From Mobula hypostoma (taxonomy: Eukaryota), in NCBI RefSeq assembly GCF_963921235.1, contig NC_086097.1:129272001-129336000 (forward strand): a stretch of DNA of 64,000 bases, in the 5' to 3' direction. This document shows positions 1,698 through 62,988 of this stretch, in pieces. Below the pieces are notes generated by a model that was given only the letters and a program-made list of their open reading frames with translations, was not told where the DNA came from and did not search any database. The first letter of the stretch is position 1. Every line of letters begins with the position of its first letter. The position numbers were made by a program, and so were the translations under genes.

Positions 1698-2089
1698 TAT
1701 TGTTGTGAAAGTACAAATCTTACTTTCTTCCTTGAATGGCCCGACTGTGATTTTATGATTATCTTTCATTACACTGAGGACTATTTTTTTCCTCAATATC
1801 AGCCCCTGCCACAATCTGAAAAGCAGAAATCAGACATTCTCAGGGACTATAAATGTAATCTCTGGGATTCCTTCTCTTGGTAGAATTCCTTTTGTTAACA
1901 TTAATTTCCTTAGGATATGGGGATTTCTGGCAGGTCCAGCATTTGTTTCCTATTCCTTATTGCCCTGGAACTTAATTGGTTTGCTGGACCATTCCAGGGG
2001 CATCAAAGGCAGAATGGTTTCCTATAAGCAACATACATCAAAGTTGCTGGTGAACGCAGCAGGCCAAGCAGCATCTATAGGAAGAGGCG

Positions 2090-2127
2090 CAGTCGACGTT
2101 TCAGGCCGAGACCCTTCGTCAGGACTA
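2090..2127 (-). ncRNA. Second hammerhead motif copy on the inverted arm
   Basis: Exact reverse complement of 3085-3122. Confidence 0.8.
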
Positions 2128-2418
2128 ACTGAAGGAAGAGTGAGTAAGGGATTTGAAAGCCGGAGGGGGAGGGGGAGATGCAAAATGATAGGAGAAGACA
2201 GGAGGGGGAGGGATAGAGTCGAGAGCTGGACAGGTGATAGGCAAAAGGGGATACGAGAGGATCATGGGACAGGAGGCCTAGGGAGAAAGGTGGGGGGGGG
2301 TGACTCAGAGGATGGGCAAGAGGTATATTCAGAGGGACAGAGGGAGAAAAAGGAGAGTGAGAGAAAGAATGTGTGCATAAAAAGGAGTAACAGCTAGGGT
2401 ACGAGGGGGAGGTGGGGC

Positions 2419-2712
2419 CTAGCGGAAGTTAGAGAAGTCAACGTTCATGCCATCAGGTTGGAGGCTACCCAGACGGAATATAAGGTGTTGTTCCTCCAAC
2501 CTGAGTGTGGCTTCATCTTTACAGTAGAGGAGGCCGTGGATAGACATGTCAGAATGGGAATGGGATGTGGAATTAAAATGTGTGGCCACTGGGAGATCCT
2601 GCTTTCTCTGGCGGACAGAGCGTAGATGTTCAGCAAAGCGGTCTCCCAGTCTGCGTCGGGTCTCACCAATATATAAAAGGCCACATCGGGAGCACCGGAC
2701 GCAGTATATCAC
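2419..2712 (-). pseudogene. Penelope GIY-YIG endonuclease domain (5'-truncated, frame intact)
   Basis: IYCVRCSRCGLLYIGETRRRLGDRFAEHLRSV...VATHFN...EEQHLIFRLGSLQPDGMN matches the GIY-YIG pattern with the CxxC and His residues typical of Penelope-like elements. Confidence 0.93.
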
Positions 2713-3084
2713 CCCAGTCGACTCACCTTATATTCCGTCTGGGTAGCCTCCAACCTGATGGCATGAACATTGACTTCTCTAACTTCCGCTAGGCCCCACC
2801 TCCCCCTCGTACCCTAGCTGTTACTCCTTTTTATGCACACATTCTTTCTCTCACTCTCCTTTTTCTCCCTCTGTCCCTCTGAATATACCTCTTGCCCATC
2901 CTCTGGGTCACCCCCCCCCCATCTTTCTCCCTAGGCCTCCTGTCCCATGATCCTCTCGTATCCCCTTTTGCCTATCACCTGTCCAGCTCTCGGCTCTATC
3001 CCTCCCCCTCCTGTCTTCTCCTATCATTTTGCATCTCCCCCTCCCCCTCCGGCTTTCAAATCCCTTACTCACTCTTCCTTCAGT

Positions 3085-3122
3085 TAGTCCTGACGAAGGG
3101 TCTCGGCCTGAAACGTCGACTG
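3085..3122 (+). ncRNA. Minimal type I hammerhead ribozyme motif in Penelope 3' repeat
   Basis: TAGTC-CTGACGA-AGG-GTCTCGG-CCT-GAAAC-GTC-GACTG. Contains the core CUGANGA and GAAA, a GUC cleavage triplet, stem I TAGTC/GACTG, a short stem II and a palindromic ACGU in place of stem III. Confidence 0.8.
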
Positions 3123-3799
3123 CGCCTCTTCCTATAGATGCTGCTTGGCCTGCTGCGTTCACCAGCAACTTTGATGTATGTTGCTTGAATTTCCAGCATC
3201 TGCAGAATTCCTGTTGTTATGGTTTCCTATAACTTCAATTAAGTACTTCAGTTACCTGCTGTCAAAATGTTCATTTTATTAATGACATCTTGTTTTTTTC
3301 ATTTGCTACCTTCGTTAAATTATTATATTCCTACACTTTTGTTTATCTACTACTATTGTTAATTATATCTGCACTTGACCACCATAGTATAACTACATAA
3401 GCAAGTACTATCAAATATCTTTGGACTTACAGCTTTTACCAATGTTTTAAAATATTCAAGTAACTTCTTTTCTAGTTCACCATGAATAGCCTCACGTTTC
3501 TGTTCACTGAAATATATCCACCAGAGTTCTGCCCAGTCAGCTGATTTACAAATGTGTCTTTGTAATTGCTTTACTAATTGTACTTTTAATACCACTAGTT
3601 TGTATCAGAAATTTGAATTCATTGCTCACAATTGTATTTATATCAATAATGCTAAAAATATTGTTAATTATGGCTTCAGCAATGATCCATTTTGGAATTC
3701 TTCCAGGCATTCATTACAGTTTGTATACACCCCTGCTTGTCGTCATCTGTCCCTGAAGCAATATTCCTAACAGGCCGATAACTTGCCTTTCTTTGGGAA

Positions 3800-5973: not shown

Positions 5974-6908
5974 TAGTCATAGTCATAGTCATAGTCATAC
6001 CTTATTGATCCCGGGGGAAATTGGTTTTCGTTATAGTTGCACCATAAATAATAAATAATAATAGAACCATAAATAGTTAAATAGTAATATGTAAATTATG
6101 CCAGTAAATTATGAAATAAGTCCAGCACCAGCCTATTGGCTCAGGGTGTCTGACCCTCCAAGGGAGGAGTTGTAAAGTTTGATGGCCACAGGCAGGAATG
6201 ACTTCCTATGATGCTCTGTGCTGCATCTCGGTGGAATGAGTCTCTGGCTGAATGTACTCCTGTGCCCACCCAGTACATTATGTAGTGGATGGGAGACATT
6301 GACCAAGATGGCATGCAACTTAGACAGCATCCTCTTTTCAGACACCACTGTCAGAGAGTCCAGTTCCATCCCCACAACATCACTGGCCTTACGAATGAGT
6401 TCGTTGATTCTGTTGGTGTCTGCTACCCTCAGCCTGCTGCCCCAGCACACAACAGCAAACATGATAGCACTGGCCGCCACAGACTCGTACAACATCCTCA
6501 GCATCGTCCAGCAGATGTTAAAGGACCTCAGTCTCCTCAGGAAATAGAGACGGCTCTGACCCTTCTTGTAGACAGCCTCAGTGTTCTTTGACCAGTCCAG
6601 TTTATTGTCAATTAGTATTCCCAGGTATTTGTAATCCTCCACCATATCCACACTGACCCCCTGGAATAAAACAGGGGTCACCGGTACCTTAGCTCTCCTC
6701 AGGTCTACCACCAGCTCCTTAGTCTTTTTCACATCAAGCTGCAGATAATTCTGCTCACACCATGTGACAAAGTTTCCTACCGTAGCCCTGTACTCAGCCT
6801 CACCTCCCTTGCTGATGCAACCAACTATGGCAGAGTCATCCAAAAACTTCTGAAGCTGACAAGACTCTGTGCAGTAGTTGAAGTCCGAGGTGTAAATGGT
6901 GAAGAGAG
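5974..6908 (-). mobile_element. Rex1/Babar-type LINE, 5'-truncated (RT C-terminal half plus 3' UTR)
   Basis: 263-aa ORF with LQKFLDDSAIVGCI, KKTKELVVDLRR, YKYLG and KKGQSRLYFLRRLRSF; (TATGAC)n tail at 5974-5998. Confidence 0.88.
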
Positions 6909-7402
6909 ATACCAGCACAAACAAAGTTAGGAATTGCTCTCCAAATCAGCAACCACCAAATTAATGCAATGCTAATGTGGGGGTACTGAATTGTATTGCT
7001 CTCCAGAGGATATTTTCATAATGACTATCTATAGCAATGTAGCCAATCATAAATTTTCTGCCAGATTAATCCTTGAATTTTCAAATAGATAGAAAAAGTC
7101 AACTGAGGAAAAGCAAATATTGACATAACTCGCAGAACAGCACCTGAAAAAAGAAACCTTTCCTGACATAATCATGGAAACTCAGTAATAAAACAGAGGA
7201 CTGTGCTTGAATATTTAGAAGAATTTAATTCATGAAGATAATAATGTTTGTATGCATTACCGTGCAAAAATAGCATGAGAATGATGGTAATCAGCAAAGG
7301 AAGGGTTTGCAATTAAGTAGCATTTCTCATAACATCAGGATCTGTGAAGCATTTAACAATGAATAAAAAACCTTGAAATGTAGTCACAGTTGTAATATCG
7401 AG

Positions 7403-9940: not shown

Positions 9941-11061
9941 CATTGCACCAGTACACAACCTCCCAGTCTCTCCTCCCTTATGCCACAAACCCAGAGAGGG
10001 GACCTATACACCAGTATTTACAGTATTCCTTTCTCCCTCATGGGATTCCTTAGCTTTAACTGCATTTATACCATTTGCCTCAACTGCTCCTGTGGGTAAC
10101 AAATTCTGCATTCTAATTCCTCTCTGGGGAAAAGAAACTTTCCTTGGATATTACTGGATTTATAGCATCTATGGTCCTTTGAATGTTACAATATGATTGC
10201 AGCAATAATTGTATTTGTAACTTAGTATTTATACATCTTTAACACTGAGGATTAATTTCACTGGAGTGCCAAATCATTTTCCACAATCACTTGAACCTTT
10301 GGAGAAATTGTCGATCTATAACCAGTGGCTTCACATGGATTAAAATTAAAACAAAATGTTACTACAGATTGGGATCACGCAAGAAGATTTTTGATTCTAA
10401 GCAAAAAAAAAGTGGAAGTCAAACCAAATTAAACATATAATTTCACAGACAAATAGGGTTATAAAGCACAGAAACAGGCCATTTAGCTAATATTGTCCAT
10501 GCTGACCTTACTGAGCTAGTCAGTCCAGATTTTTTGTCTGTAATGCTGGTGTTTAGTTATATTATTCCTTGGAAGAATCTGGAAGGAAGATGAAGATAAG
10601 AGCTCAGGCAGCCTTTGCCTAGATAGCACCACAGCCTTTGGCTCTTCACCATCAAATCTTGGCCCACACCAGCTCCCATGATCAAGCCTCAAACTCCCAA
10701 TTATGGCCTTGTCCTCCCACCCACCTAACTCTGACTCTCACCCAGCAGATAGTTAAGACCCACCCACATCTTAAACCCATGCTCAAATATTAATCTTAAA
10801 CTGCAGATGCTGGAAATATAAATAGAAAATACCTGAGGTACTTGAGTATTTGCAGTAGCTGCAGAGGGAGAAAAAATGTTAACATGTCAAATAATGAACT
10901 CTACTTCAGGTTTTATAACATAAGTGGTGGAATTTTATTACAGAAGCTACTGATTGGTACGTGCAGTGTAGTTTCCAACTAAAGTTAAACTGTCTTGATT
11001 CCTCTGGATGTGTGGTTCAGTTGTTCCTCAAGGCAGCAAGGCAGACCTAGTATTATCCAAC

Positions 11062-11185
11062 CAACACACACAAAATATACTGGTGGAATGCAGCAGGCTA
11101 GGTAGCATCTATAGGAAGAGGTACAGTTGACATTTCGGGCCAAGACCCTTCGTCAGGACTAACTGAAAGAAGAGATAGTAAGAGT
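11062..11185 (-). mobile_element. Penelope 3' repeat fragment with variant hammerhead motif (11124-11161)
   Basis: Similar to 2030-2150; minus strand reads TAGTCCTGACGAAGGGTCTTGGCCCGAAATGTCAACTG. Confidence 0.8.
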
Positions 11186-11189
11186 ATTG

Positions 11190-12862
11190 TCCAGTGGTTT
11201 ACAATCATTTTAATCAAATTCAATCAATCTATACAATATCTCGGCCACTGTGCCTTACTGCAACCTCCTTCACGAAGTTCGGGACTGGTGACCCAGGAAA
11301 GTACAAGAGGTTCAGGTCTGACCTCCGGAAAGCTATCTCACATGCACAGTGGCAATTCCAGACTAAACTTGATTGACAGAAGGATGCTTGACAGCTGCAG
11401 CAGGGCCTGAATGCCATCATCTCATTCAAAGCAAACCCAAGCAACAGAAGTGACAAGAAGGTTTTTCTCAAAGCCTTTTATGCTCACCTTGACTTGACAG
11501 AACCTGGAGGCACCTTCATAAATTCCCACACCACCTGACGACCCTATGATCTTAGTATGATTTTAGAAGCCAACATGAGAACATCATTCAGGAAGGTGAA
11601 CCTGTGGAAAGCATCTGGCCCAGACGGTGTACCTGGCCAAATCCTGCAGACCTATGATCATCATGTACAAGGGGTGATTGATACGTTTTTGGCCTAAGGT
11701 GGAAGGAGTCAATTTTAGAAAACCTAGCACATTTATTTTTCAACATAGTCCCCTCCTACATTTACACATTTAGTCCAGCGGTCGTGCAGCAGACGGGTCC
11801 CTTCTTTGTAGAAGTTGGCATCTTGGACCTCCAGAAAGTGGTCCACAGCAGGGGTGATTGATAAGTTTGTGGCCTAAGGTAGAAGGAGATGAGTTATTAA
11901 CTTCAAACTTTCTGTATAATCACTCAAAGAGTTGAACTGCATGTGCATGTAATGAGAGCTGTATGACTCATCTCCTCCTACCTTAGGCCACCAACTTATC
12001 AATCACCCTTGCTGTGGACCAGTTTCTGGAGGTCCAGGACTCCAACTTCTAAAAAGAAGGGATCCGTATGCTCCATGACCGCTGGACTAGGTATGTAAAT
12101 GTAGGAGGGGAATATGTTGAAAAATAAATGTGCTAGGTTTTCTAAAATTGATTCCTTCTACCTTAGGCCACAAACTTATCAATCACCCCGTGTAAGTGCC
12201 GCCACAAAGAAGGCACAACAATGCCTCTACTCTCTCAGAAGTTTGCGCAATTTTGACACGTCATCTAAAATTTTGAAAACTTCTATTGGTGCACAGTAGA
12301 GAGTTCTGTATATTGATCGGCTACATCACGGCCTGGTTTGGAAACACTAATACCTAAGAATGAAAACGTCTACAAAAGGTGGTAGATATAACCCAGTCCC
12401 TGCAGGAAAATCCCTCTCCACCACTGAGCACATCTACAAGGATTGCCGTCACAAAAAGGCAGCATCCATCAGGGGCACTTGCCATTGGGAAAGAGGTACG
12501 GGAGCCTTATGTCCCACACCACCAGGTTCAGGAACGGTTCAACCATCAGGCTTCTGAACTAGTGTGGATAACTTCATTCACCTCAACTCTGAACTGAATC
12601 CATAACTTATGAACTCACCTTCAAGACTCTACAACTCATGTTCTCAGTATTATTCATTGATTTAATTGTTAGTTTGTTTAATTACAGTTTGATTTATTTT
12701 GTACATTGGTTGTTTGTCAGCCTTTGTGTGTAGTTTTTAATTGATTCTATTATATTTCTTTGTTTTATTATGAATGCCTGCAAGAAAAATAATCTCAGGG
12801 TTGTATATGGTGACACACTGTATATGTACTTTGATAATAAATTTACTTTGAAATTTGAACTT
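11190..12862 (+). mobile_element. Rex1/Babar-type LINE, decayed and internally deleted, interrupted by a mariner MITE
   Basis: Translations GDPGKYKRFRSDLRKAI, KASGPDGVPG and KKAQQCLYSLRSLRNF; 3' UTR ends AATAAATTTACTTTGAAATTTGAACTTT. Confidence 0.75.
11668..12192. mobile_element. Tc1/mariner-type palindromic MITE
   Basis: Flanked by TA (11666-67 and 12193-94). Termini CAAGGGGTGATTGAT / ATCAATCACCCCGTG. Inverted arms of about 230 bp. Confidence 0.9.
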
Positions 12863-14585: not shown

Positions 14586-14700
14586 CACAAACAAGAGAAA
14601 ATCTGCAGATGCTGGAAATCCAAGCAACACACACAAAGTGCTGGAGGAACTCAGCAGGCCAGGCAGCATCTATGGAAAAGAGTACAGTCCACGTTTTGGG
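14586..14700 (-). mobile_element. Penelope 3' repeat fragment
   Basis: CTGCAGATGCTGGAAATCCAAGCAACACACACAAAGTGCTGGAGGAACTCAGCAGGCCAGGCAGCATC, related to the reverse complement of 3130-3215. Confidence 0.8.
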
Positions 14701-14819
14701 CAGAGAACATCTAAGTATAGATGGAGCCCATTGAGAAGAGACTGGTTTGCACGACAGACTGAGTAACATCTAGTTATTCGTGACTTTTAACATGCTTTGA
14801 CTGTCTATTACATTCAGAG

Positions 14820-17350: not shown

Positions 17351-17643
17351 TTTCCCAAAAGAAATGGTTTTGTGTGTTTATACGGGCTGCCTTTGGAATA
17401 GACAACAAAAAGGCACATTGTAGAAGAACTCAACCAGCCAAGCAACTTCTGTGGAAAGAGAAACAAGTCAATGTTATAGGTTGGAGACCAAGGGGAGGGT
17501 AGGATGTGGGAAGGATTACAGTTTTCAAAACAGGGTAAGGCAGGAGCAGGTGAGTGAGATGTAGTACAAAAGACTAAATATTAGTGTTAAAGGAGAAAGA
17601 GTACTGTCCAGAAGGGAGTATTTCATTGAAACAAGGCAAGAAA

Positions 17644-18075
17644 AACACATAAACACAAGGAAGTCTGCAGATGCTGGAAATCCAAAGCAACACACACAAA
17701 GTGCTGGAGGAACTCAACAGGTCAGGCAGCATCTATAGAAATGAATAAACAATCGACGTTTCAAGCCAAGACCCTTCTTCAGAACTGAGAAAAAAGGGAG
17801 AAGATACCAGAATAAATGGTGGGGGAATTGGAAGGAGGCTAGCTAGAAGGTGATTGGTGAAGCCAAGTGGGTGGGAAAGGTAAAGGGCTGGAGAAGAAGG
17901 AAGCTGATAGGAGAAGAGAGTGGACCGTAGGAGAAAGGAAGGGACCCGTGTGAATTGACGGGCAGATAAGAAAAGGTGAAAGGCAGAATGGGGAATAAAA
18001 GAAGAAAAATACATAAGAATATTGCAAAATTCAATGTTCATTCCATAAGGTTAAAAAGCGCCTAGACAGAAGATG
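17644..18075 (-). mobile_element. Penelope 3' repeat (older subfamily) with decayed hammerhead motif near 17753-17786
   Basis: Homologous to 52105-52500 and to the reverse complement of 40520-40835. Confidence 0.8.
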
Positions 18076-19347: not shown

Positions 19348-22305
19348 CCATAAAACCATGAGATATGGGAGCAAAATTAGGTCATTAGGCCTATCGAGGC
19401 TGCTCTGTGATTTCATCATGGCTGATCCAATTCTCCTCTCAGCCCCAACCTCCTGCCTTCAACACTTATCCCTTCATGCCCTGACGAAACGTGAATCTAT
19501 CAATCTCTGCCTTAAATATACATAAAGACTTGGCCTCCACAGCTACCTATGGCAAAGAATTCCACAGATTCACCACTCTCTGGCTAAAGAAGTATCTCCT
19601 CATCTCTGTTCTAAAAGGATGCCCTCTATTCTCAGGCAGTGTCCTCTGGTCTTGGACTCTCCACATTCACTCATCAAGGCTTTTCATCATTCGATGGGTT
19701 TCAATGAGGTCTCCCCTTATTCTTCTGAATTCCAGTGCATATAGGCCTGGAGCCATCAAACACTTTTCATATGACAAGCCAGTCAATCCTGTAATCACTT
19801 TTATGAACCTCCTTTGAACCCGCTCCAGTTTCAGCACATCCTTTCTATGACAAGGGGCCAAGACTGCTCACAATACTCCAAGTGAGGCCTCACCGGTGCT
19901 TTATAAAGTCTCAACATTACACCTTTGCTTTTATATTCTAGTCCTCTTAAAATGAATGCTAAGATCACATTTGCCTTTCTCAACACAGACTCAACTTGCA
20001 AATTAACCTTTAGGGATTCCTGCACAAGGACTCCCAAGACCCTTCGCACCTCAGTTTTTTGTATTTTCTCTCCATTTAGAAAATAGTCAACTCTTTCATT
20101 TCTTCTACCAAAGTGCATGACCATACACCTCCTGACACTATTCCATCGGCTATTTCTGTGCCCATTCTACTAATCTGTCTGTCCTTCTATAGTATCTTTA
20201 CTTCCTCAAAATTACCTGGCCCTCCACCTATCTTCACATCATCTGCAAACTTAGCAACAAAGCAATCAATTCCATCATCCAAATCATTGACATATAACAC
20301 AAAAAGTGTCGGTCCCAACACAGACTTCTGTCACCAGCAGCCAACCAGAAAAGGCTCCCTTTATTCCTACTCTTTGCTTCCTGCCAATCAGCCACTGCTT
20401 TATCCATGCTAGAATTGTTTTGTAATACCATGGGCTCGTAGCTTGTTAAGCAGCTTCATGTGTGGCACCTTGTCAAAGGCGTTCCGAAAATCCAAGTACA
20501 CGACATCAACTGATTCTCCTTTGTCTATCCTGCTTGTTACTTCTTCAAATAATTCCAACAGATTTGTCAGGCAAGATTTTCCCTTGAGGAAACCATGCTG
20601 ACTACAGCCTATTTTATCATGTGCCTCCAAGTACCCTGAGACATTATCCTTAATAACCAACTCCAACACATTCCCACCCACTGACATCAGACTAACTGGC
20701 CTATAATTTCCTTTCTTCTGCCTCTTTCCCTTCTTGAAGAGCGGAGTGACATTTGCAATTTTCCAGTCTCCTGGAACCATTCCAGAATATAGTGATTCTT
20801 GAAAGATCATTAAAAATGCCTCCACAATCTCTTTCTATATCCACCCTTACCTCTCTTTTACACTTTATGTATCTGAGGAAACTTTTGGTATCCATTTTAA
20901 TATTTCTGGTTAGCTTAGTTTCTTATTCCATCTTTACCTTCTTAATTACTTTTTTAGTTGTCTTTTGTTGGTTTTTAAAAGTTTCCCAACCCTCTAACTT
21001 CCCACTAATTTTTGCTGTATTATATGCCCTCCCTTTGGCGTATACTGTATGTTGGTTTTGACTTCACTTGTTAGCCACAGTCAAGTCATCTCGCCTTTAG
21101 AATACTTCTGCTTCTTTGGGCTGTATATATCCTGTGCCTTCCGAATTGCTTCCAGATATTCCATCCATTGCTGCTCTGCCATCATTCCTACCAGTGTTCT
21201 TTTCCAATCAAATCTGGCCATCTCCTCTCTCATGCCTCCGTCATTCCTGTTACTCCACTGTAATACTGATACATCTGGCTTCGGCTTCTCCTTCTCAAAT
21301 TTCAGGGTTAATTCAATCATAATATGATCACATTCTCCTAAGGGTTCTTTTACCTTAAGCTCTCTAAACAATTCTGGTTGATTTCCTAATCATCGCACAA
21401 CACCCAATCCAGAATAGATGGTCCCTAGTGGACTCAACCACAAGCTGTTCAAAAAGGACATCTTGTAGACACTATGGAAATCCAGGAATCCTCCTGGAAT
21501 CCAGCACCAACCTGATTTTCCCAAACTACCTGCATATTCAAATCCCCCATGACTATTGTAATATTGCCCATTTGGCATGCATTTTCTATCTCCCATTGTA
21601 ATTTGTAGACGACATCCTTACTACTGTTTGGGAGTCTGTATATAATTCCCATCAGTTATTTTTGCCCTTGTAGATCCTAAGCTCTATCCACAACGATTCA
21701 ACATCTTCCAACTGTATGTCACCTCTTTCTAATGAGTCGATTTCATTTTTTACCAACAGAGCAATACCATCCCTTCTGCCTTCTTGCCTGTCTTTCCAAT
21801 ACAATGTGTATCCTTGGATATTAAGCTCCCAGCCATAATCTTCTTTCAGCCATGAGTCAGTGATGCCTACAACATCATACATGCCGATTTGCAACTGTAC
21901 TACAAGTTCATCTACCTTATTTTGTATGTAGCGTGCGTTCAAGTACAACAGCTTCTGTCCTGTTTTCACCCTTTTTGATTTTGTCTGTCTTTTAAGTTGC
22001 AACTCATCTTGTTGCCTGCTTTTTGTTCTATCAACAGCCTCTCCTCATTGCATATTGCCTCTGTTTGTTAACCAGATACCTCATCTTCAAAACTATCATT
22101 CGCCCTTCCTATGATACTTCTTGCATTGAAATAAACACAGGAGAGGACACTAGTCACACCATGCTCAACCTTTTGATTCCTAACTTTGTCGGAGGTCTTA
22201 CCAACATCTGCCTCCATAACCTCTCCACCAACTGTTCTGGCGCTCTAGTTCCCATCCCCCTGCAGCTCTAGTTTAAACCCCACTGTGCAGCATTAACAAA
22301 CCTTT
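19348..22305 (-). mobile_element. CR1 LINE: end of ORF1 plus decayed ORF2 (APE endonuclease and RT) with an internal deletion
   Basis: LYLNARYIQNKVDEL...DVVGITDSWL (APE); DWKIANVTPLFKKG...NYRPVSL...SQHGFLKGKSCLTNLL...VYLDFRNAFDKVPH (RT); RPHLEYC; ORF1 ends GLN* near 22268. Multiple frameshifts and stops. Confidence 0.95.
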
Positions 22306-31412: not shown

Positions 31413-33090
31413 GGAGCACCCCACCCCTGGCGGTCCTTGATGGCCCAGGACAAGCCAGATGGGTCAAGTGGAAATCATTGACGAACGATGGATCCAAGAT
31501 GTAATGGGATGGCAAGCAAGCACCTCTCCTCTGGGCTGTATCCTTCGCAGTTCATCTGGTACTGCACACCCTGTCCTCGATGATGTGAATCCATCAACCA
31601 GTGACTGGACCACCTTCCACCATCCCTGGTTCTGGAGGTGTAAGCTCAGCTGGGGTAAGTGGTCCATGGACAATGGGCTTGAGGCAGGACATGAGGAAGA
31701 TGGGTGTAATCCTGAGGGATGGTGGCAGCTGGAGACAGTAAGTGACTGGATTGATGTGATGGGTGACCTTGACCAATGAACCAGGGCAAGAGCTTGCAGG
31801 GGTAAGAGCGCAGAGGTAAATCTCAGCCAGACACATTCCCCAGCCTGGCTGGGTGCCGATGACGGTTGTCCTGTTGACAGCAGGTGCAGTTGGCCTCCCA
31901 CGCCCTCCTTCACACATTCCAGAAGTGGTGAACCAGGGACCTAGCAGATGGGACCTCCACCATTTGTTCCTTCACGGGGAATAACAGGGATTGGTAGCCT
32001 TGGAGCACTCCAAAGGGTGACACACCTGTGGCAGAGGAGTTGTGCAGAGTGTGGGACAGCTCAACCCAGAGCAGATACTCATTCCATATGGAAAGGTTAG
32101 AGGTGGCGAATCATCACAGAAACTTCTCCACTTGCTGATTGACCCTTCTGCCTGACCGATAGCCAGAGGATAAACTCACTGAGTTGTAGAAGGCTTGCCA
32201 GAAACGGGAGATGAATTGTTGGGGCCCCCGTGCAACACAATATCCTGAAGGAAGCTGTAGAGGTAAACTACATGTTAGAGAACCAGGTCTGCTGGCTCAG
32301 CAGCTGATGGAAACTTGGGGAAGGCAATGAATTGGGCCACTTTGGGGAACTGGTCCACCGCTGTTATGATCACATAAGAAGGTAGCAAACCCATGATGAA
32401 ATCCATGGTGATGTGGGACCACGTGTGTCGAGGGACCGGTAGGGGCCACAGGAGCCCAGAGGACCACTGGTTACAGGAATTGGATCCTAGATACTGAGGA
32501 CAAACAGCAACAAACTCACATATATCTGCAATCATGGTGTGCTACTAGAACAGGCATCACAGAAAGTCAAGAGACCATAGTGCTCCTGAATGGCTGAATG
32601 GCTGAATGGCCGGAGAGGCTGGAGAGGGGTGAGGCGAGGGCCCACTGGAGTGCATCAGAGCAGTTGTCCGCTGTGTCGCCTGAAGCAGGGTTATGCTGTA
32701 GGACCTGTTGGATCTGGTCCTCAAGGTCCCAGGTGATCGGGAAAAGGATCTTCAAGGATGGAGTGATAGACTGATATCTCCATTACAGCAGTGTCAAACT
32801 GCCATGCAGGATGTCTACTTTGTGTTTTGGAACCAGGTCGGTCGGAGATGGTGAAGTTGAACTGTTCAAAGAGGGCCTGGCAAGCCTGACATGCATTGAG
32901 TCAGCAGGTCTGAAGTATGGATAGGAGGTTCTGGTGATCCATCCAGATCCAGATAGTATTTCCCCTTCAGCCAATGTCGCTGTTCCTCCAAGACCTATTT
33001 AATAGCGAAGAGCTCATGTTCTCCTACTCCATAACAGTGCTGTGTAAGGTTGAACTTGTGTGAGAAGAAGACACAAAGGTGTGTCTTCAT
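31081..33090 (-). mobile_element. Gypsy/Ty3 chromovirus (sushi/Tf-like) remnant: RNase H, integrase, chromodomain and 3' LTR
   Basis: Minus-strand YGVGEHELFAIK*VLEEQRHWLKG (RNase H); GLLWPLPVPRHTWSHITMDFIMGLLPS...VDQFPK (integrase); INPVTYCLQLPPSLRITPIFLMSCLKP (GPY/F module). Heavily frameshifted. Confidence 0.92.
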
Positions 33091-35909: not shown

Positions 35910-36190
35910 TTGGGGCAGTTGATAGAGCCACTGCCTCACAGAGCCAGAGACCTGGGTTCAGTCCTGACCTTAGCTGCTGTCTGTGTGGAGTTTGCATGTT
36001 CTTTCTGTGTGGGATTCCTCTGGATGCTCACATTCCCCACCTCATCCCACAACACAGTATGGGTTGGTAGGTTAATTAACCACTGTAAATTGCCCCTAAT
36101 GTATTACAGAGTAGTAGGATCTGGGTATAGATAATGAAAATATGGGAGAATTAAAAAATGTATGGCGTTAATGTAAGGTAACTGAACATG
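35910..36190 (+). mobile_element. V-SINE (tRNA head plus V domain)
   Basis: GCCTCACAG..CCAGAGACCTGGGTTCAGTCCTGACC...GTCTGTGTGGAGTTTGCATGTTC. Confidence 0.75.
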
Positions 36191-36900
36191 GAGGTTATGC
36201 TCTGACGCAGGCAGTCTCATCCTGAAACATTGACTGTTTACTTGTTTCCATAGATCCTGCCTGACCTGCTGAGTTCCTCCAGCATCCAGAATCTGCAGAA
36301 TCTCTTGTGTTCATAATTGAACATAGATAATTGATGCTCAGTGCAGACTCGGTGGGCAGAAGAGTTTGTTTCTGTGCTATATCTCTCTGTGACTCCCTGA
36401 TTCGATGATGTGAAATCAAATCCCTGTCTGTACTCTCAAGTGGATGTAAGGTCCTAAATTTCTTTTTGCACTCTGTGATAGAATTTGATTAAAGATAAAG
36501 CTTTATTACACCCTTTGGCATTTTCACAGAAAAATCATCAAAAAATGGGATTTCCGCTGCATCATGACAGTGGACCTGCAAAAGTTTGACCAAAGAAGTA
36601 GAAAACTAGGGAGGTAGATCACAGCTTAGCACCAGGGCAGTAGTTGACACGGCCACTAGCACGGCAAGCACTGACTGGAGCAGTCTCAATTTCTCAAAAA
36701 AAACTGTAAGGCTCATGAGATTTCAGAGATAGGAGAGGATAAGATCACAGATCTGAAAGCAATTTTTAAAACAAGGATATGACTTGGCTAGGAGTCAGTG
36801 TAGGTCAGCAAGCACAGTGGCAATAAGCAATACACTGGCAAAAATCCGTTGAAGTTTGTGTATATTTTGCAGCCAGGTCAAAGACCGCACTCAGTCTAGA

Positions 36901-39000: not shown

Positions 39001-39524
39001 CAAATGATACCTAACATGCTCGTACTGTACATCAATTAATCTCTGCAAGCAAGGGTAAAAGAATGCATGTTTTGTGACTCAGGCTGTGTACCACCATCAC
39101 TGGATTATTGAGCATGGTCGAGGGGAAAGAACCTTAGGGATTCCAATGCAAAAGGGGGAGATTTAGCCCATTACACATCGTCATATAGTCACACAGAAAC
39201 AGCTCTTCAGGGTATCTGGTCCATGTTGACCAAGATACCCATCCAAGCTAGTTCCATTTGCCAGCTTTTGGCCCAGAGCCTTCAAACTTTTTCCCATCTA
39301 TATACCTGCCCAACTGACTTTTAAAAGCTGTTATTACTCCTGCTTCAACTCATTCCATAGTCTCCACCACCCTCTGTGTGGGGAAAGTTGTAGTTTTATA
39401 AATCAGTACGGAGACCCTACCTCAGTTCTCAACAGTGGACATTAAGAGGCTTTTAAATAAACACATGAGTGAGCAGGGAATTGATAGATGTGGTTCAAGT
39501 GCAGGCAGAAGACAATTAGTTTCA

Positions 39525-39714
39525 CACATTAAAGTTGCTGGTGAACGCAGCAGGCCAGGCAGCATCTCTAGGAAGAGGTACAGTCGACGTTTCAGGCCGA
39601 GACCCTACGTCGACTGTACCTCTTCCTAGAGATGCTGCCTGGCCTGCTGCGTTCACCAGCAACTTTGATGTGTGTTGCTTGAATTTCCAGCGTCTGCAGA
39701 ATTCCTGTCGTTTG
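39525..39714. mobile_element. Miniature fold-back Penelope insertion with 15-bp TSD, inside a CR1 3' end
   Basis: Arms 39523-39590 and 39607-39674 differ by one mismatch; AGACAATTAGTTTCA occurs at 39510-39524 and 39715-39729. Confidence 0.93.
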
Positions 39715-39914
39715 AGACAATTAGTTTCATTTGGTATCATGTTCAGCATTGTGGACTGAAGGGTCTGTTCTATGTTCTGTGTTCTGTATTCTGTTATGTT
39801 TCCCTATCACACATAGAGAATGCAGCCATGTTAGAAGTGACATATTTAAGATGACTAAACTATATGACTATTCATATTTAAGATGACTTGACTATATGTC
39901 TTCCCACCCTGTCT

Positions 39915-40835
39915 CTCCTGTAAAAATGCTAATCCCTTTTCTCGATTCCTTTACCTCCAGTGCATCTGTTCCCAGGATGAGGGTTTCCTTTCTAGGACAT
40001 TAGAGATGTCTTCCTTCTTCAAAGAATGCCTCCACCTCTGTTGATGCTGCCCTCAACCACATATCCTCCATCACCTGGACATCCATGCTCACCCCATTTT
40101 CCTGCCACCTTAACAGGGAGAGAGTTCTTCCAGTCCTCAGCTACCTCCCCATGAGCCTCCCCACCTGACACATCATTCTTCGCTATTTCCGCAAACTTCC
40201 AACGGATCCTACCACCAATCACAACTTTACCTCTGCTCCCCCCACCCACCCGCCCATTCCCCGCTTTCTGCAGAGATCGCTCTCTCCATGGTCTCCTTGT
40301 TCATTCATCCCTGCCCACTAATCTACCACCTGGCGTTTATCCCTGTAAACAGCCTAAAAGCTACATCTGGCCCTTCACCTCCATTCAGAGCCTCAAACAG
40401 TCCTTCCAGGTGAGTCAACACTTCACCTCCTAATCTGCTGGGGTTGTCTATTGTATCCATTCCCATTCTGACATCTTATGTCATGCTGAAACAACCCTCA
40501 GGGTGGAGTAGCAACAACTTGTATTCCATCTGGTCAGCCTCCAATTTGATGGCACGGATATCGATTCCACCTCCCGATAGAAAAAATTCTCTCTCCTTCC
40601 CCTCTCCTCCCTCTCCCAGACCTCTTACCTCTTCTCACCTGCTTATCACCTGCCCCTAGTGCCCCTTTTCCTTCTCTTTCTCCGATGCTCCACTCTCCTC
40701 TGCTACCAGATTTCTTCTTCTCCAGCCCTTTACCTTTCCCACCCACCTGGCTTCACCTATCACCTACTAGCTATCCTCCTTCCCGTTCCTCCAGCCTTTT
40801 ATTCTGGAATTTTCCCCCTTCCTTTCCTTTTTTGT
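39915..40835 (+). mobile_element. Penelope fragment (RT C-terminus, partly deleted endonuclease, 3' repeat), decayed
   Basis: Reverse-complement homology to 52105-53050 and to 2419-2560. Confidence 0.8.
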
Positions 40836-44436: not shown

Positions 44437-44535
44437 TTAGTTCTGATGAAGGGTCTCAGCCTGAAATGTTGACTCACTTGCTTAGATGCTGCCTGACTTG
44501 CTGAGTTCCTCCAGCATTCTTGTGTTCTTCTTGTG
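44437..44535 (+). mobile_element. Penelope 3' repeat fragment starting at a hammerhead motif
   Basis: TAGTTCTGATGAAGGGTCTCAGCCTGAAATGTTGACT followed by AGATGCTGCCTGACTTGCTGAGTTCCTCCAGCA. Confidence 0.75.
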
Positions 44536-48860: not shown

Positions 48861-48997
48861 TTAAATATCCTATCCATGCCACTAATAATTTTATATATCC
48901 TTTCAGGGCATTTCTCTGTTTCCTTCACTCCAGGGAAAGCAATCTCACTCCATCTAATCTCTACCCATAACCAAACTCATTCAATTCACACAGCATC

Positions 48998-50057
48998 TAG
49001 CATGGATAAAACAGTGGCAGATTGGCAGAAGTCAAAGAGTGGGAGTAAAGGGAGCCTTTTCTGGCTGGCTGCCAGTGACCAGTGGTGCTCCACAGGGGTC
49101 TGTATTGGGACCGATCCCTTTTATGTTATATGTCAATGATTTGGATGATGGAATTGATGGCTCTGTTGCAAAGTTTGCAGGCAATATGAAGATAGGTGGA
49201 GAGACAGCTATTTTTGAGGAAATAGAGAGGCTACGGAAGGACTTAGATAGATTGACAGAAAGGGCAAAGAAATAGATAGAGTACAGTGTTGGGAAGTGCA
49301 TGTCATGCACTTTTCATCGAAGAAATGAAAGGATTGATTAATTTCTAAATGAAGAGAAAATACCAAAAAAAACTCAGGTGTAAAGGGACTTGGGATTCCT
49401 TGTGCAGGATTCCCTAAAAGTTCATTTGCAGGTTGAGTCTGTAGTGAGGATGGCAAATGTATTGTTAGCATTCATTTCAAGAGGACTAGAATATAAAAGC
49501 AAGGATGTAACATTGAGACTTTATAAAGCACTGGCAAGGCCTCACTTGGAGCAGTTTTGTGCCCCTTAGAAAGGATTTGCTGAAACTAGAAAGGGTTCAA
49601 AGGAGGTTGACGAAAATGATTCAAAGATTAAATGGCTTGTCATAGGAAGAGTGTTTGATGGTTCAGGGCCTGTATTCACTAGAATTCTGAAGAACGAGGG
49701 GTGACCTCATTGAAGCCCATCAAATGGTGAAAGGCCTTTATAGAGTGGACATGGAGAGGATGCTCCCTATGGTGGGAGAGTCTAAGACCAGAAGTCACAG
49801 CCTCAGATAGAGGAGTGTCCTTTTAGAACGGAGACGAGCAGGAATTTTTTTAGCCATAGAGTGGTGAATCTGTGGAATTCTTTGCCACAAGCCGCTGTGG
49901 AGGCCAAGTCTTTATGTATATTTAAGGCAGGGGTTGATATATTCTTGACTGGTCAGGGCATGAAGGGATACGGAGAAAAGGCAGGAGACTGGGGAGCAGA
50001 CTCAATGGGCTAAATGGCCTAATTCTGCTCCTATATCTTATGGTCTTGCGGTCTTAT
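48998..50057 (+). mobile_element. CR1 LINE 3' third (RT C-terminus plus 3' UTR)
   Basis: FSGWLPVTSGAPQGSVLGPIPFMLYVNDLDDGIDGSVAKFAG; same subfamily as 19348-20410; TCTTATGGTCTT tail. Confidence 0.92.
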
Positions 50058-51900: not shown

Positions 51901-52104
51901 GGAGTTGGCTGATCAGCCGGAGACAATGTAGGGATAATGGGAAGTCATCACCATAGGGATAATGAGGAAGCGACAGAGATGAACAGCGTGTTGCATTGAT
52001 TTATTTACAGACAACTTATCCAATGGGATACAAATAGGAATAGACAAGGTAGAAATATTGGAAGCATTTCTGTTGGCTGAGGGGTTTGCAATCAGTTTAA
52101 ACTT

Positions 52105-53050
52105 AGAGCAACACACATAAAATTCTGGGGGAACTCTATAGGCTAAGCAACATCGATGTTTCAGGCTGAGACCCCGCTTCAGGACTGGAAAGAAAGGGAG
52201 CAGTCGCCAGAATAAAAAGGTGGAGGAACGGGAAGGGGGACATCTAGAAGGTGATAGGTGAAGCCAGGTGAGTAGGAAAGGTAAAGGGCTGGAGAGGAAG
52301 GAATCTGCTAGGAAAGGAGAGTGGACCACAGGAGAAACGGAAGAAGGAGAGAATCCAGGGGGAAGTGATAGGCAGGTGAGAAGAGGAAAAAATCCAGAGT
52401 GGGGAATCGAAGAAGGGGAGAGGGGGAAGGAAATTTTTTTTACCAGAAAAAGAAATCGATATTCATACCATCAAGTTAGGGGCTCCTCAGATGGAATATA
52501 AGGTATTCCTCCTCCACCCTGTGTGTGGCTTCATCATGGCACAAGAGGAGGCCATGAACTGACATGTCGGTACAAGAATAAAAATCAGAAATAAAATGTT
52601 TGGACATGGGGAAGTTCTGCTTTTGGCGGATGGAGTGGAAGTGCTCAACAACGCAGTCCCCCAATTTACGAAGGGTCTCACCAATGTCGAGGAGATGCGT
52701 TGGGAGCACTGGGCACAATAGACGACCCCAGCAGATTCACAGGTGAAATGTGAATTCAGCTGGAAGGAATTTTTGGGGGCCCTGAATGAAGAGGAGGTGA
52801 ATGGACAGGGGTAGCAATTTGGACACTTGCAGGGATAAGTGCTGGGAGGGAGATTAGTGAGGAGGGACAAATAGACAAGGGATTATGAAGGAGAGATCCC
52901 TGTAGGAAGTGGAGAGAGGGTTGGAGGTAAAGATATGCTTGGTGGTAGGGGCCCTTTGGATATAGCAGAAGTTGCTGAGAACAATGTGTTGGCTGTGGAG
53001 GCTCATGGGGTCGTAGGTAACTATAAGAGCTTCGATCCTGGTGCTGGTGA
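52105..53050 (-). mobile_element. Penelope fragment (GIY-YIG region plus 3' repeat), decayed
   Basis: HFTCESAGVVYCAQCS / IGETLRKLGDCVVEHFHSI / EEEYLIFHL; decayed hammerhead motif near 52152-52188. Confidence 0.88.
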
Positions 53051-53858
53051 AGTAAAAAGCACTTCTATTCCATGTTGTAGAAGCATAGTTGTCCATTCTG
53101 CACATAGCAATTTCTGGATCAAATCGCAATCTTAAAGCTGAGGCTGTAAAGATCTTTGTTATCCACAGGAAGTAGGCACTGCGAGAAAAGAGCTGGTTTA
53201 AGGAGTTAGGTCAAAGATCATCCACAATATTATTGAATGGAGGAAAAGCCTTGAGGGGCTAGCCAGTTTATTCCTTTTCCTATACTCCATTGCAATATAG
53301 GGCAGCAAACAGCGGTTGGCAGGGTTAAAAAGAATGTGCGTCAGTTTTGTTAAATGCATTAAGATGACAGACCCACCGTGACTATTGAACCCAAAACTTT
53401 GTCAATAATTGTGCACTATCATCTAAAAATCTTGTTAGTCTTTTCTCTATAATGCCAAAGAAATCTTTTCACGGACATTTTACAAAATAAGGGATAGTGA
53501 TTGTTAATCTTTGGGTAATATCCCTGTAAGAATTACATCTTTTATTTTGTTCTTTTCCGAATGTCATTTTGATGTTGAATTAAAGATGGTTCCAGGGTTG
53601 TAAGATGTAGGGTTGCATCAGCACAAAGTGGCAAACTAGGTTTGAACCCTCTGTAAATTGTTTTACAATTATCCGGTGAGCTTCAATAGACACTGGCCAT
53701 TCTTACAATCCAAAGATACATAAAGGAAGGTCTTCAAATGTAGCTGCCTGAGCATGTTATTTGGACATAGTGTTTGCCTGAGGGCTGGTTAAAGGCCAGG
53801 ACATTTACAAAAGCGGACCCTCATCTACATAACAAATGTTCACAGTCAGGCGCACGCA

Positions 53859-61654: not shown

Positions 61655-62988
61655 ACAATCATACCCTCAGTTCTAATCAAAAATCTCCAAACCTGGGCCT
61701 CTGTACCTCCCTCTGAAACTGAATCCTTGTCTTCTTCACTGGGACACCATAGCCTGTGTGGATTGGAAATAACATCAGAATCGGGTTTATTATCACCAGC
61801 ATGTGTTGTGAAATTTGTGAATGTAGCAGCAGCAGTTCAATACAATACATGATAATATAGAAAGCAGAAAAAAATAAATAAGTAAATCAATCACAGTAAG
61901 TATATATATATATTAGATTAAAAATAGTGCAAGACAAAAATAATACATATTAAAAAAGTGAGGTACTGCTCATGGGTTCAATGTCCATTTAGGAATTGTA
62001 TGGCAGAGGGGAAGGAGCTGTACATCTCCTCTTCGCTGATGATCAACACTGGCACACAGCAAGGATGTATGCTTAGCCCACAGCTCTACTCTCTTTATAC
62101 CCATGACCATGTGGCTAGCACAGCTGAATTGTCATCAATGTTTGCCAACGACACAACTGTTGCAGGCAGAATTTCAGACGGTGACGAGGAGGGATACCAG
62201 AGTGAGATAGATCAGCTGGTTGAGTGGTGTCACAACAACAACCTTGTACTCAACGTTAGTAATTCGAAGGAATTGATTGTGGACTTCATGAAGGGGAAGT
62301 CAAGGGAACACGTGCCAGTCCTCATCAAGGTATCAGATGTGGGATGGATGAGCAGTTTCAAGATCGTGGGTGTCAACATCTCTGAGGATCTATTTTGGAC
62401 CAAACATATTGATGCAATTTCAAAGAAAACATGACAGTGGCTATAATTCATTAGAAGATTGGGGAGAATTGGTATGTCACCTAAAGGCACTACAAATTTC
62501 TGCAGATATGCCGTGGAGAGCATTCTAACTGATTGCATTACCATCTGGCATGAAGGGGCCACTGCACAGGATCACAAAAAGCTTCAGAAAGTTGTAAGCT
62601 CAGCCAGCTCCATCATGGGCACTAGTCTCCCAAGCATCCAAAGCACCTTCTAAGGGTGATGTCTCAAAAAGGCAGCATCCATCATTCAGGATATGTCCTC
62701 TTCTCATTGCAACCATCAAGGAGGAGATACAGGAGCATGAAAACACACACACTGCATTTCAGGAACACATTCTTCCGCTCCGCCATCAGATATCTGAACA
62801 GACAATGAACTCATGAACACCTCCTTGGTATTTTTTCTCCTTGTTTTGCACTACTTATTTAATTAAATAGTTATATATACTTCGTATTGTAATCTACGAT
62901 TTTTATTACTATATACGTATTGCGATGTACTGCTGCCACAAAACAACAAATTTCACAGCATATCCTAGTGATATTAAGCCTAATTCTT
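61655..62988 (+). mobile_element. Rex1/Babar-type LINE RT fragment interrupted by an antisense 3' end (61778-62021)
   Basis: INTGTQQGCMLSPQLYSLYTHD...FANDTTVAGRI...LNVSNSKELIVDF; stops and frameshifts present. Confidence 0.88.

Follow-up and report, generated by a model that had tools for sequence, protein, structure and literature searches.

Penelope-like retroelements are already known for inverted structures. In Arkhipova et al. 2013 (PMC3846280), the structure called typical combines a unit and the inverted repeat next to it with a 31-bp tail on one end and a duplication of 9 bp; flies and fish show it as well, and self-priming is proposed as its origin. According to Craig et al. 2021 (PMC8557442), a linker of the form CX2-5CxxC is the mark of the Neptune and Nematis clades and is absent from Penelope/Poseidon. 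Frangieh et al. 2024 (PMC11167929) report that purified Anolis Poseidon protein cleaves both strands of the target and extends them, begins synthesis by its reverse transcriptase (RT) at two sites between which the tail lies, favors AT-rich DNA and is predicted to dimerize. In PMC11167929 and PMC3846280, the formation of inverted structures by these elements is still called unresolved. In Drosophila, siRNAs match the inverted regions of rearranged Penelope copies (PMC3681739); thus, the idea of long dsRNA from such a locus, which the original prediction raised for the insertion treated below, is already in print.

Our analysis of a 64-kb stretch of the genome of the ray Mobula hypostoma (the window, within which all positions are counted) centers on an insertion that consists of two 5′-truncated 3′ ends of one Penelope-like family placed head to head (Table 1). 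The anatomy given in the original prediction, a Penelope insertion with near-perfect inverted arms of ~460 bp, a ~236-bp loop and a perfect 14-bp target-site duplication (TSD), was recovered throughout: the 3′ ends are indeed those of a Penelope-like retroelement; the arms (2026–2487 versus 2724–3186) are 98.9% complementary over 463 columns, with four substitutions (2219/2993, 2290/2922, 2305/2906 and 2442/2769) plus a discrepancy of 1 nt within a run of G/C; the loop measures 236 nt; and the flanking 14-nt direct repeat is perfect, whereas none of the random pairs of 40-nt windows drawn as a control, up to 20,000 in number, had a 14-mer in common. The last 2 nt of the left TSD copy also match the element, which places the arm boundary at 2026–2028. 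The direct copy comprises the last 22 endonuclease codons, the 3′ region, the hammerhead motif and the tail. The predicted CAC microhomology at the head-to-head junction was likewise found, in that sequencing contigs of the family fit the minus-strand arm through 2726 and then diverge (100 contigs in run X1 and 78 in X7), and the plus-strand arm starts at 2724. Family contigs continue into the tail sequence before 2026 (164 in X1, 143 in X7 and 49 in X10). When folded as RNA, the 1,191-nt insert forms ~535 pairs at ~-1,085 kcal/mol on either strand, a consequence of the inverted repeat that has no bearing on transcription. Beyond the first description, the window shows a tail of 32–34 nt (3185/87–3218) on the right arm alone, a hammerhead motif in each arm and a second two-armed insertion.

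Table 1. Features of the two-armed insertion and further copies of its family in the window
Feature	Position	Strand	Basis or remark
Left TSD copy, 14 bp	2014–2027	+	Direct repeat search; organism B and C contigs stop fitting at 2027
Inverted 5′-truncated copy of element 3′ end, 699 nt, tail-less, loop included	2028–2726	-	
Putative minimal type I hammerhead motif, inverted copy	2089–2128	-	Motif scan
Open N-terminally truncated GIY-YIG frame, 101 aa and stop	2419–2724	-	CxxC between two core motifs
Loop, 236 nt, GIY-YIG coding, unique to inverted copy	2488–2723	-	
CAC microhomology common to both copies, head-to-head junction	2724–2726	none	
Direct 5′-truncated copy of element 3′ end, 495 nt	2724–3218	+	
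Putative minimal type I hammerhead motif, direct copy	3084–3123	+	Motif scan
Tail, 32 nt (34 nt counted from 3185), right arm only	3187–3218	+	
Right TSD copy, 14 bp	3219–3232	+	
Single-arm copy, same superfamily, tail-less	11049–11193		Probable TSD (11–15 nt)
Short copy of family 3′ end	14586–14706	-	No TSD found
Single-arm copy, same superfamily, tailed	17638–18016		Probable TSD (11–15 nt)
Single-arm copy, same superfamily, tailed	36179–36324		Probable TSD (11–15 nt)
Second two-armed insertion	39510–39729	none	15-bp TSD; tail-less inverted arm 39525–39606; tailed direct arm 39607–39714
Older decayed copy, related subfamily	39836–40830	+	Reaches linker and RT thumb region upstream
Short copy of family 3′ end	44437–44516	+	No TSD found
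Older decayed copy, related subfamily	52100–53108	-	Reaches linker and RT thumb region upstream

This layout, head to head with a short tail on one side, is already described for the class, and the insertion is no new kind of element. It shares with the inverted-repeat Penelope-like insertions of PMC3846280 and PMC8557442 a head-to-head inverted 5′-truncated copy adjoining the 5′ end, a tail at one end only (30–40 bp there, 32–34 nt here), a TSD around the whole unit (8–10 bp in Adineta, 14 bp here), a hammerhead motif in the repeats and a GIY-YIG domain at the C terminus; it differs in that both copies are short and lack RT or a tandem repeat, the longer of the two is the inverted copy, and the junction has a 236-nt loop and 3-nt microhomology rather than a palindrome. 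With Anolis Poseidon in vitro (PMC11167929), it shares an AT-rich target and would have in common two start sites that bound the tail downstream of the hammerhead, and nicking and extension of both strands; in contrast, Poseidon belongs to another clade, its start is an AC-rich stem loop whereas the sense strand here is GU-rich at both ends, and a complete two-armed product is not described in the parts of that paper covered.

Given a described layout, this single insertion matters little in itself. Its value is as clean material, with long polarisable arms, a sharp TSD and apparent empty sites in relatives. In L1 twin priming, too, both nicks prime, an inverted 5′ part is joined by microhomology and one TSD bounds the insert; there, however, synthesis from the second primer begins further upstream in one and the same RNA, which leaves the arms without overlap, and the 3′ end is poly(A). 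Here both arms start in the 3′ region of the element, ~460 nt are present twice and there is no poly(A) tail, and an inversion of the L1 type was rejected on these grounds. The contrast with LINE twin priming drawn in the original prediction is thus correct as to the overlapping arms, but is no surprise in a class for which the layout is described. A MITE or fold-back DNA transposon was also discarded, as the right end extends 32–34 nt beyond the inverted repeat and the sequence is that of a retroelement 3′ end.

The open GIY-YIG frame expected on the antisense arm and loop does surpass the Pfam cut-off, in truncated form: over 2422–2724 of the minus strand (101 aa) it scores 25.4 bits against GIY-YIG (PF01541), for a cut-off of 22.6. 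With no start codon ahead of the motif and no RT, this frame is a fragment. It contains VIYCVRCSRCGLLYIG followed by histidines, which corresponds to the two cysteines between the core motifs (CCHH) in the definition of the class. The insertion as a whole has neither RT nor start codon and, going by its coding content, is a dead fragment. Among 105 longer candidates, the endonuclease fragment matched 29 relatives, the best of which come from M. hypostoma itself (94%) and Hypanus sabinus (89%). In the closest, P0001 (94% identity over 101 aa), RT motifs are followed by a C-X4-C-X2-C linker, and the linker in turn by the same endonuclease; the linker pattern was matched in 14 of the 29 relatives, and RT motifs were recognized upstream by eye in P0001–P0004 and P0023. 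In a profile scan of five relatives, RVT_1 scored in just two: P0023, where it stayed below the cut-off, and the seemingly chimeric P0007. The linker and RT of the relatives sit upstream of the truncation point, and both are absent from the insertion at 2028–3218. Judged from the linker of its relatives, the family would be of the Neptune/Nematis type, a designation that does not tell Neptune from Nematis, and the Penelope/Poseidon clade in the narrow sense was set aside because the closest relatives carry the CX2-5CxxC linker. Relative to Neptune (or Nematis), the insertion lacks the linker and RT, and it does not lie in a microsatellite. Copies of the family abound: contig depth sums to millions over the arm and to ~10 in the flank, a figure that is not a copy number; pattern scans for it in metagenome contigs and prokaryote genome contigs returned nothing. 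The element endonuclease also lies in four ray/skate gene models (P0003, P0005, P0026 and P0029), which are named as a kinase-domain protein, mucin-2, a neuromedin-U receptor and ABHD14A and are probably annotation chimeras or exonised copies.

The motif in the direct copy is composed of stem I, a CUGACGA core, stem II, GAAA and a loopless stem III, and in both arms the hammerhead core and the stem I pairing are present 60–100 nt from the 3′ end of the arm. We take it to be a minimal type I hammerhead, a reading that draws on PMC6155905. Each arm thus read carries a minimal hammerhead motif, of which cleavage is a prediction. An Rfam search had no match at the gathering score in the 64-kb window, and near the insertion gave a single chance match, to McaS (E 5.9), with no hammerhead. 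Folded alone, the hammerhead stretch has an unremarkable energy (z 0.18) and adopts no catalytic fold, nor does it as a dimer; these foldings neither support nor refute activity. A bioRxiv preprint on retrozymes contains nothing on inverted insertions.

Further copies of the family in the window allow the anatomy to be compared. In the second two-armed insertion the arms are identical at 65 of 66 positions, the junction has no strict overlap but merely a 4-nt match after one mismatch, and neither arm has a whole hammerhead motif because the turn falls inside it. Over the 66 shared positions, arms differ at 0–1 sites within an insertion and at 5–6 between insertions, which suggests that both arms of an insertion come from one source or subfamily. 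The 3′ ends of the family fall into two groups ~32–40 nt apart, one tail-less (the left arms at 2 and 39 kb and the copies at 11 and 52 kb) and the other tailed (the right arms at 2 and 39 kb and the copies at 14, 17 and 36 kb). A search of six single-arm copies found TSDs for three (11, 17 and 36 kb), each with one mismatch, where those of 11 nt could be chance, and none for the copies at 14, 44 and 52 kb. Since TSD-bounded single arms include both a tail-less (11 kb) and tailed (17 and 36 kb) ones, both 3′ ends appear also to be used alone. Two-armed insertions make up two of the five TSD-bounded copies found in the window, whose TSDs span 11–15 nt and are 71–80% AT. The two older decayed copies have translations ~40% identical to P0001. 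Separately, a contig joint leading from 2128 on the minus arm to 2727 on the plus arm was seen in one contig each of organisms A and B; this is probably another head-to-head junction elsewhere, in both organisms, within 3 nt of the plus-arm start.

The age and reality of the insertion were examined by comparing contigs of 4 of the 24 listed runs over 1000–2770. In organism A (X1, possibly the source sample of the window), a 550-nt contig fits 1503–2052 with zero differences; it extends 25 nt across the left junction, for a bridge threshold of 31 nt, and passes the end of the TSD unbroken, as expected without an empty allele, in contigs that drop variants. In organism B, a 3,756-nt contig fits 1038–2027 with 11 substitutions and 2 gaps in 990 nt, after which come 2,766 letters with no fit to the insert, and in organism C a 213-nt contig fits 1898–2027 and then runs on for 83 more letters. 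Both depart from the window where the TSD ends, at 2027, as an empty site would, a judgement made from the position of the break. The word share of organism B (0.66) is near the sum of the 0.42 expected from both flanks and the 0.19–0.20 seen in runs of other organisms. Together with the contig ends, this indicates that the insertion is probably younger than the A–B split, in keeping with the recent insertion that had been predicted, and makes it a likely lineage marker between the two organisms. The flanks of A and B diverge by 1.1% (95% interval 0.55–2.0%) and the arms by 0.87% in substitutions (0.24–2.2%); had the arms been identical at the A–B split, 5.1 substitutions would be expected between them and 4 are seen, so that its age would be close to that of the split, and lower if the templates supplied the differences. 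Run X10, guessed to be RNA, leaves parts of the left flank without cover and gives no evidence either way on expression.

Both arms, read 5′ to 3′ from each end of the target, are antisense to the element, and hence match the expectation for two first-strand cDNAs. We consider it fairly probable that the locus records one integration event of an endonuclease-bearing Penelope-like element that was primed from both strands, and we infer the order of events and the number of templates. In such an event the GIY-YIG endonuclease would nick the two strands of an AT-rich target 14 nt apart, as the TSD suggests; the bottom-strand 3′ end would prime cDNA at a distal start site, giving the tailed arm, and a second cDNA, primed by the top-strand 3′ end at a proximal start site that lies 32–34 nt further in, would become the tail-less inverted arm. 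The templates may have been two RNAs of one source or two tandem repeats within one RNA; both cDNAs would terminate early (at 495 and 699 nt), and their 3′ ends would pair via CAC/GTG, with repair filling in. The two groups of 3′ ends, tailed and tail-less, the AT-richness of all five TSDs and the ability of the Anolis Poseidon protein to cut and extend both strands from two tail-bounding start sites are consistent with this, as is the observation that all five differences between the arms look derived on the inverted arm, which suits separate templates better than copying of one arm from the other. Against it stand several points: no intermediate was seen, and the mechanism is carried over from a different clade; the Poseidon start site is an AC-rich RNA, in contrast to the GU-rich sense strand at both ends here; microhomology of 3 nt is weak, and strict overlap is absent from the junction at 39.5 kb; and the one-sidedness of the differences is post hoc and not significant at this locus (4 of 4 substitutions, two-sided p = 0.125). 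Of the origins offered in the original prediction, two priming events fit this anatomy, but a cDNA template switch alone does not. With the loop on the left only and the tail on the right only, neither arm is a plain copy of the other; on sequence grounds, self-priming fold-back as the sole mechanism would thereby be excluded.

The main rival to priming from both strands is instead a combination, which we regard as somewhat unlikely: the 699-nt tail-less top-strand cDNA folds its terminal CAC onto the GTG at 2485–2487 and copies itself, and a second short cDNA adds the tail and closes the gap. That GTG does lie on the same strand as the terminal CAC, the arms within an insertion are near-identical, and the folding predicts a loop on the tail-less arm, as seen in 2 of 2 insertions and not required by double priming. 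Self-priming has, moreover, been proposed for the class, and Arkhipova et al. 2013 (PMC3846280) interpret junctions of this kind as the outcome of self-priming with an antisense template; the published copies there, however, have a short inverted arm and a long direct copy, which is the opposite polarity. Folding back would still require a second priming event for the tail and predicts arms that are identical at birth and change later on both sides, whereas the differences look derived on the inverted arm in 5 of 5 cases here and in 1 of 1 at 39.5 kb. That the hairpin was already part of a donor locus or a donor RNA and got copied whole, or that two separate insertions occurred at one site, appears improbable. 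The class can move host DNA between repeats as a unit (PMC3846280), the family is very abundant by summed contig depth, and the 2128–2727 joint in X1 and X7 uses nearly the same plus-strand start; but a single TSD bounds the whole insert, no second copy of the exact junction occurs among the matches listed, and the arms share minority alleles at 2067, 2088, 2160, 2161, 2221 and 2384, six sites at which much or most of the family differs from both arms, making two independent insertions unlikely. It is highly improbable that the hairpin is an assembly or read artefact such as a fold-back chimera: none of the 32 contig pieces listed, of ~285,500, crosses the 2723/2724 junction, and the 25 nt by which the X1 contig crosses the left junction come from what may be the source sample, but the arms differ at five places and each has unique sequence, that contig fits 1503–2052 exactly, the TSD ends precisely where the contigs of two relatives depart, and the same layout recurs in the second insertion and in the literature. 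A genome-wide count of such insertions could separate priming from both strands from folding back.

The polarity of the arm differences offers a weak lead in this direction, not a result. At 2219 and 2442 the left arm holds a rare allele (~2% of the depth in X1); at 2290 the loose-end consensus and P0001 side with the right arm, as do the codons and frame of P0001 at 2305 and the G/C run; and at 39.5 kb, too, the one difference falls on the inverted arm. Hence 6 of 6 differences in the two insertions of the window look derived on the inverted arm (p ~0.03, post hoc), three of these six calls depending on a single relative or on a consensus that is noisy. As an explanation, a signature of ADAR or deaminase was dropped, the four substitutions being transitions of mixed direction. 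It is conceivable, if rather doubtful, that the arms are copied from two templates, either two RNAs carried by an enzyme dimer or a pair of tandem repeats within one RNA, with the tail-less inverted arm systematically the more diverged. Were this true genome-wide, young two-armed insertions of ray genomes would directly record double priming and could settle how the class builds inverted structures. In the literature covered, which leaves out subscription papers, no title or opening of an abstract suggests a genome-wide test of arm polarity or work on this ray family.

The rest of the window also bears the marks of mobile elements. A Pfam scan of 74 of the 143 frames of at least 78 aa matched five (RVT_1 twice, SH3_Tf2-1, ALKBH8_N and UCH_UBL1), presumably all mobile-element remains, and no host exon was identified among the 74, a scan that short exons would escape. 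Four long frames, at 6136–6945 (-), 20412–20834 (-), 61928–62431 (+) and 31597–31971 (-), look like remains of LINE/LTR retroelements, and their Pfam matches are ALKBH8_N, RVT_1 twice and SH3_Tf2-1. Two 1-kb repeat copies in opposite orientation (19443–20413 and 48996–49994) are 79% identical and lie 29 kb apart; a frame in the first matches UCH_UBL1, just under the cut-off. Finally, a 529-bp palindrome at 11666–12194, which is 85% self-complementary, contains two internal repeats, has TA at both ends and lies inside another repeat, is what we take to be a mariner-type miniature fold-back element.
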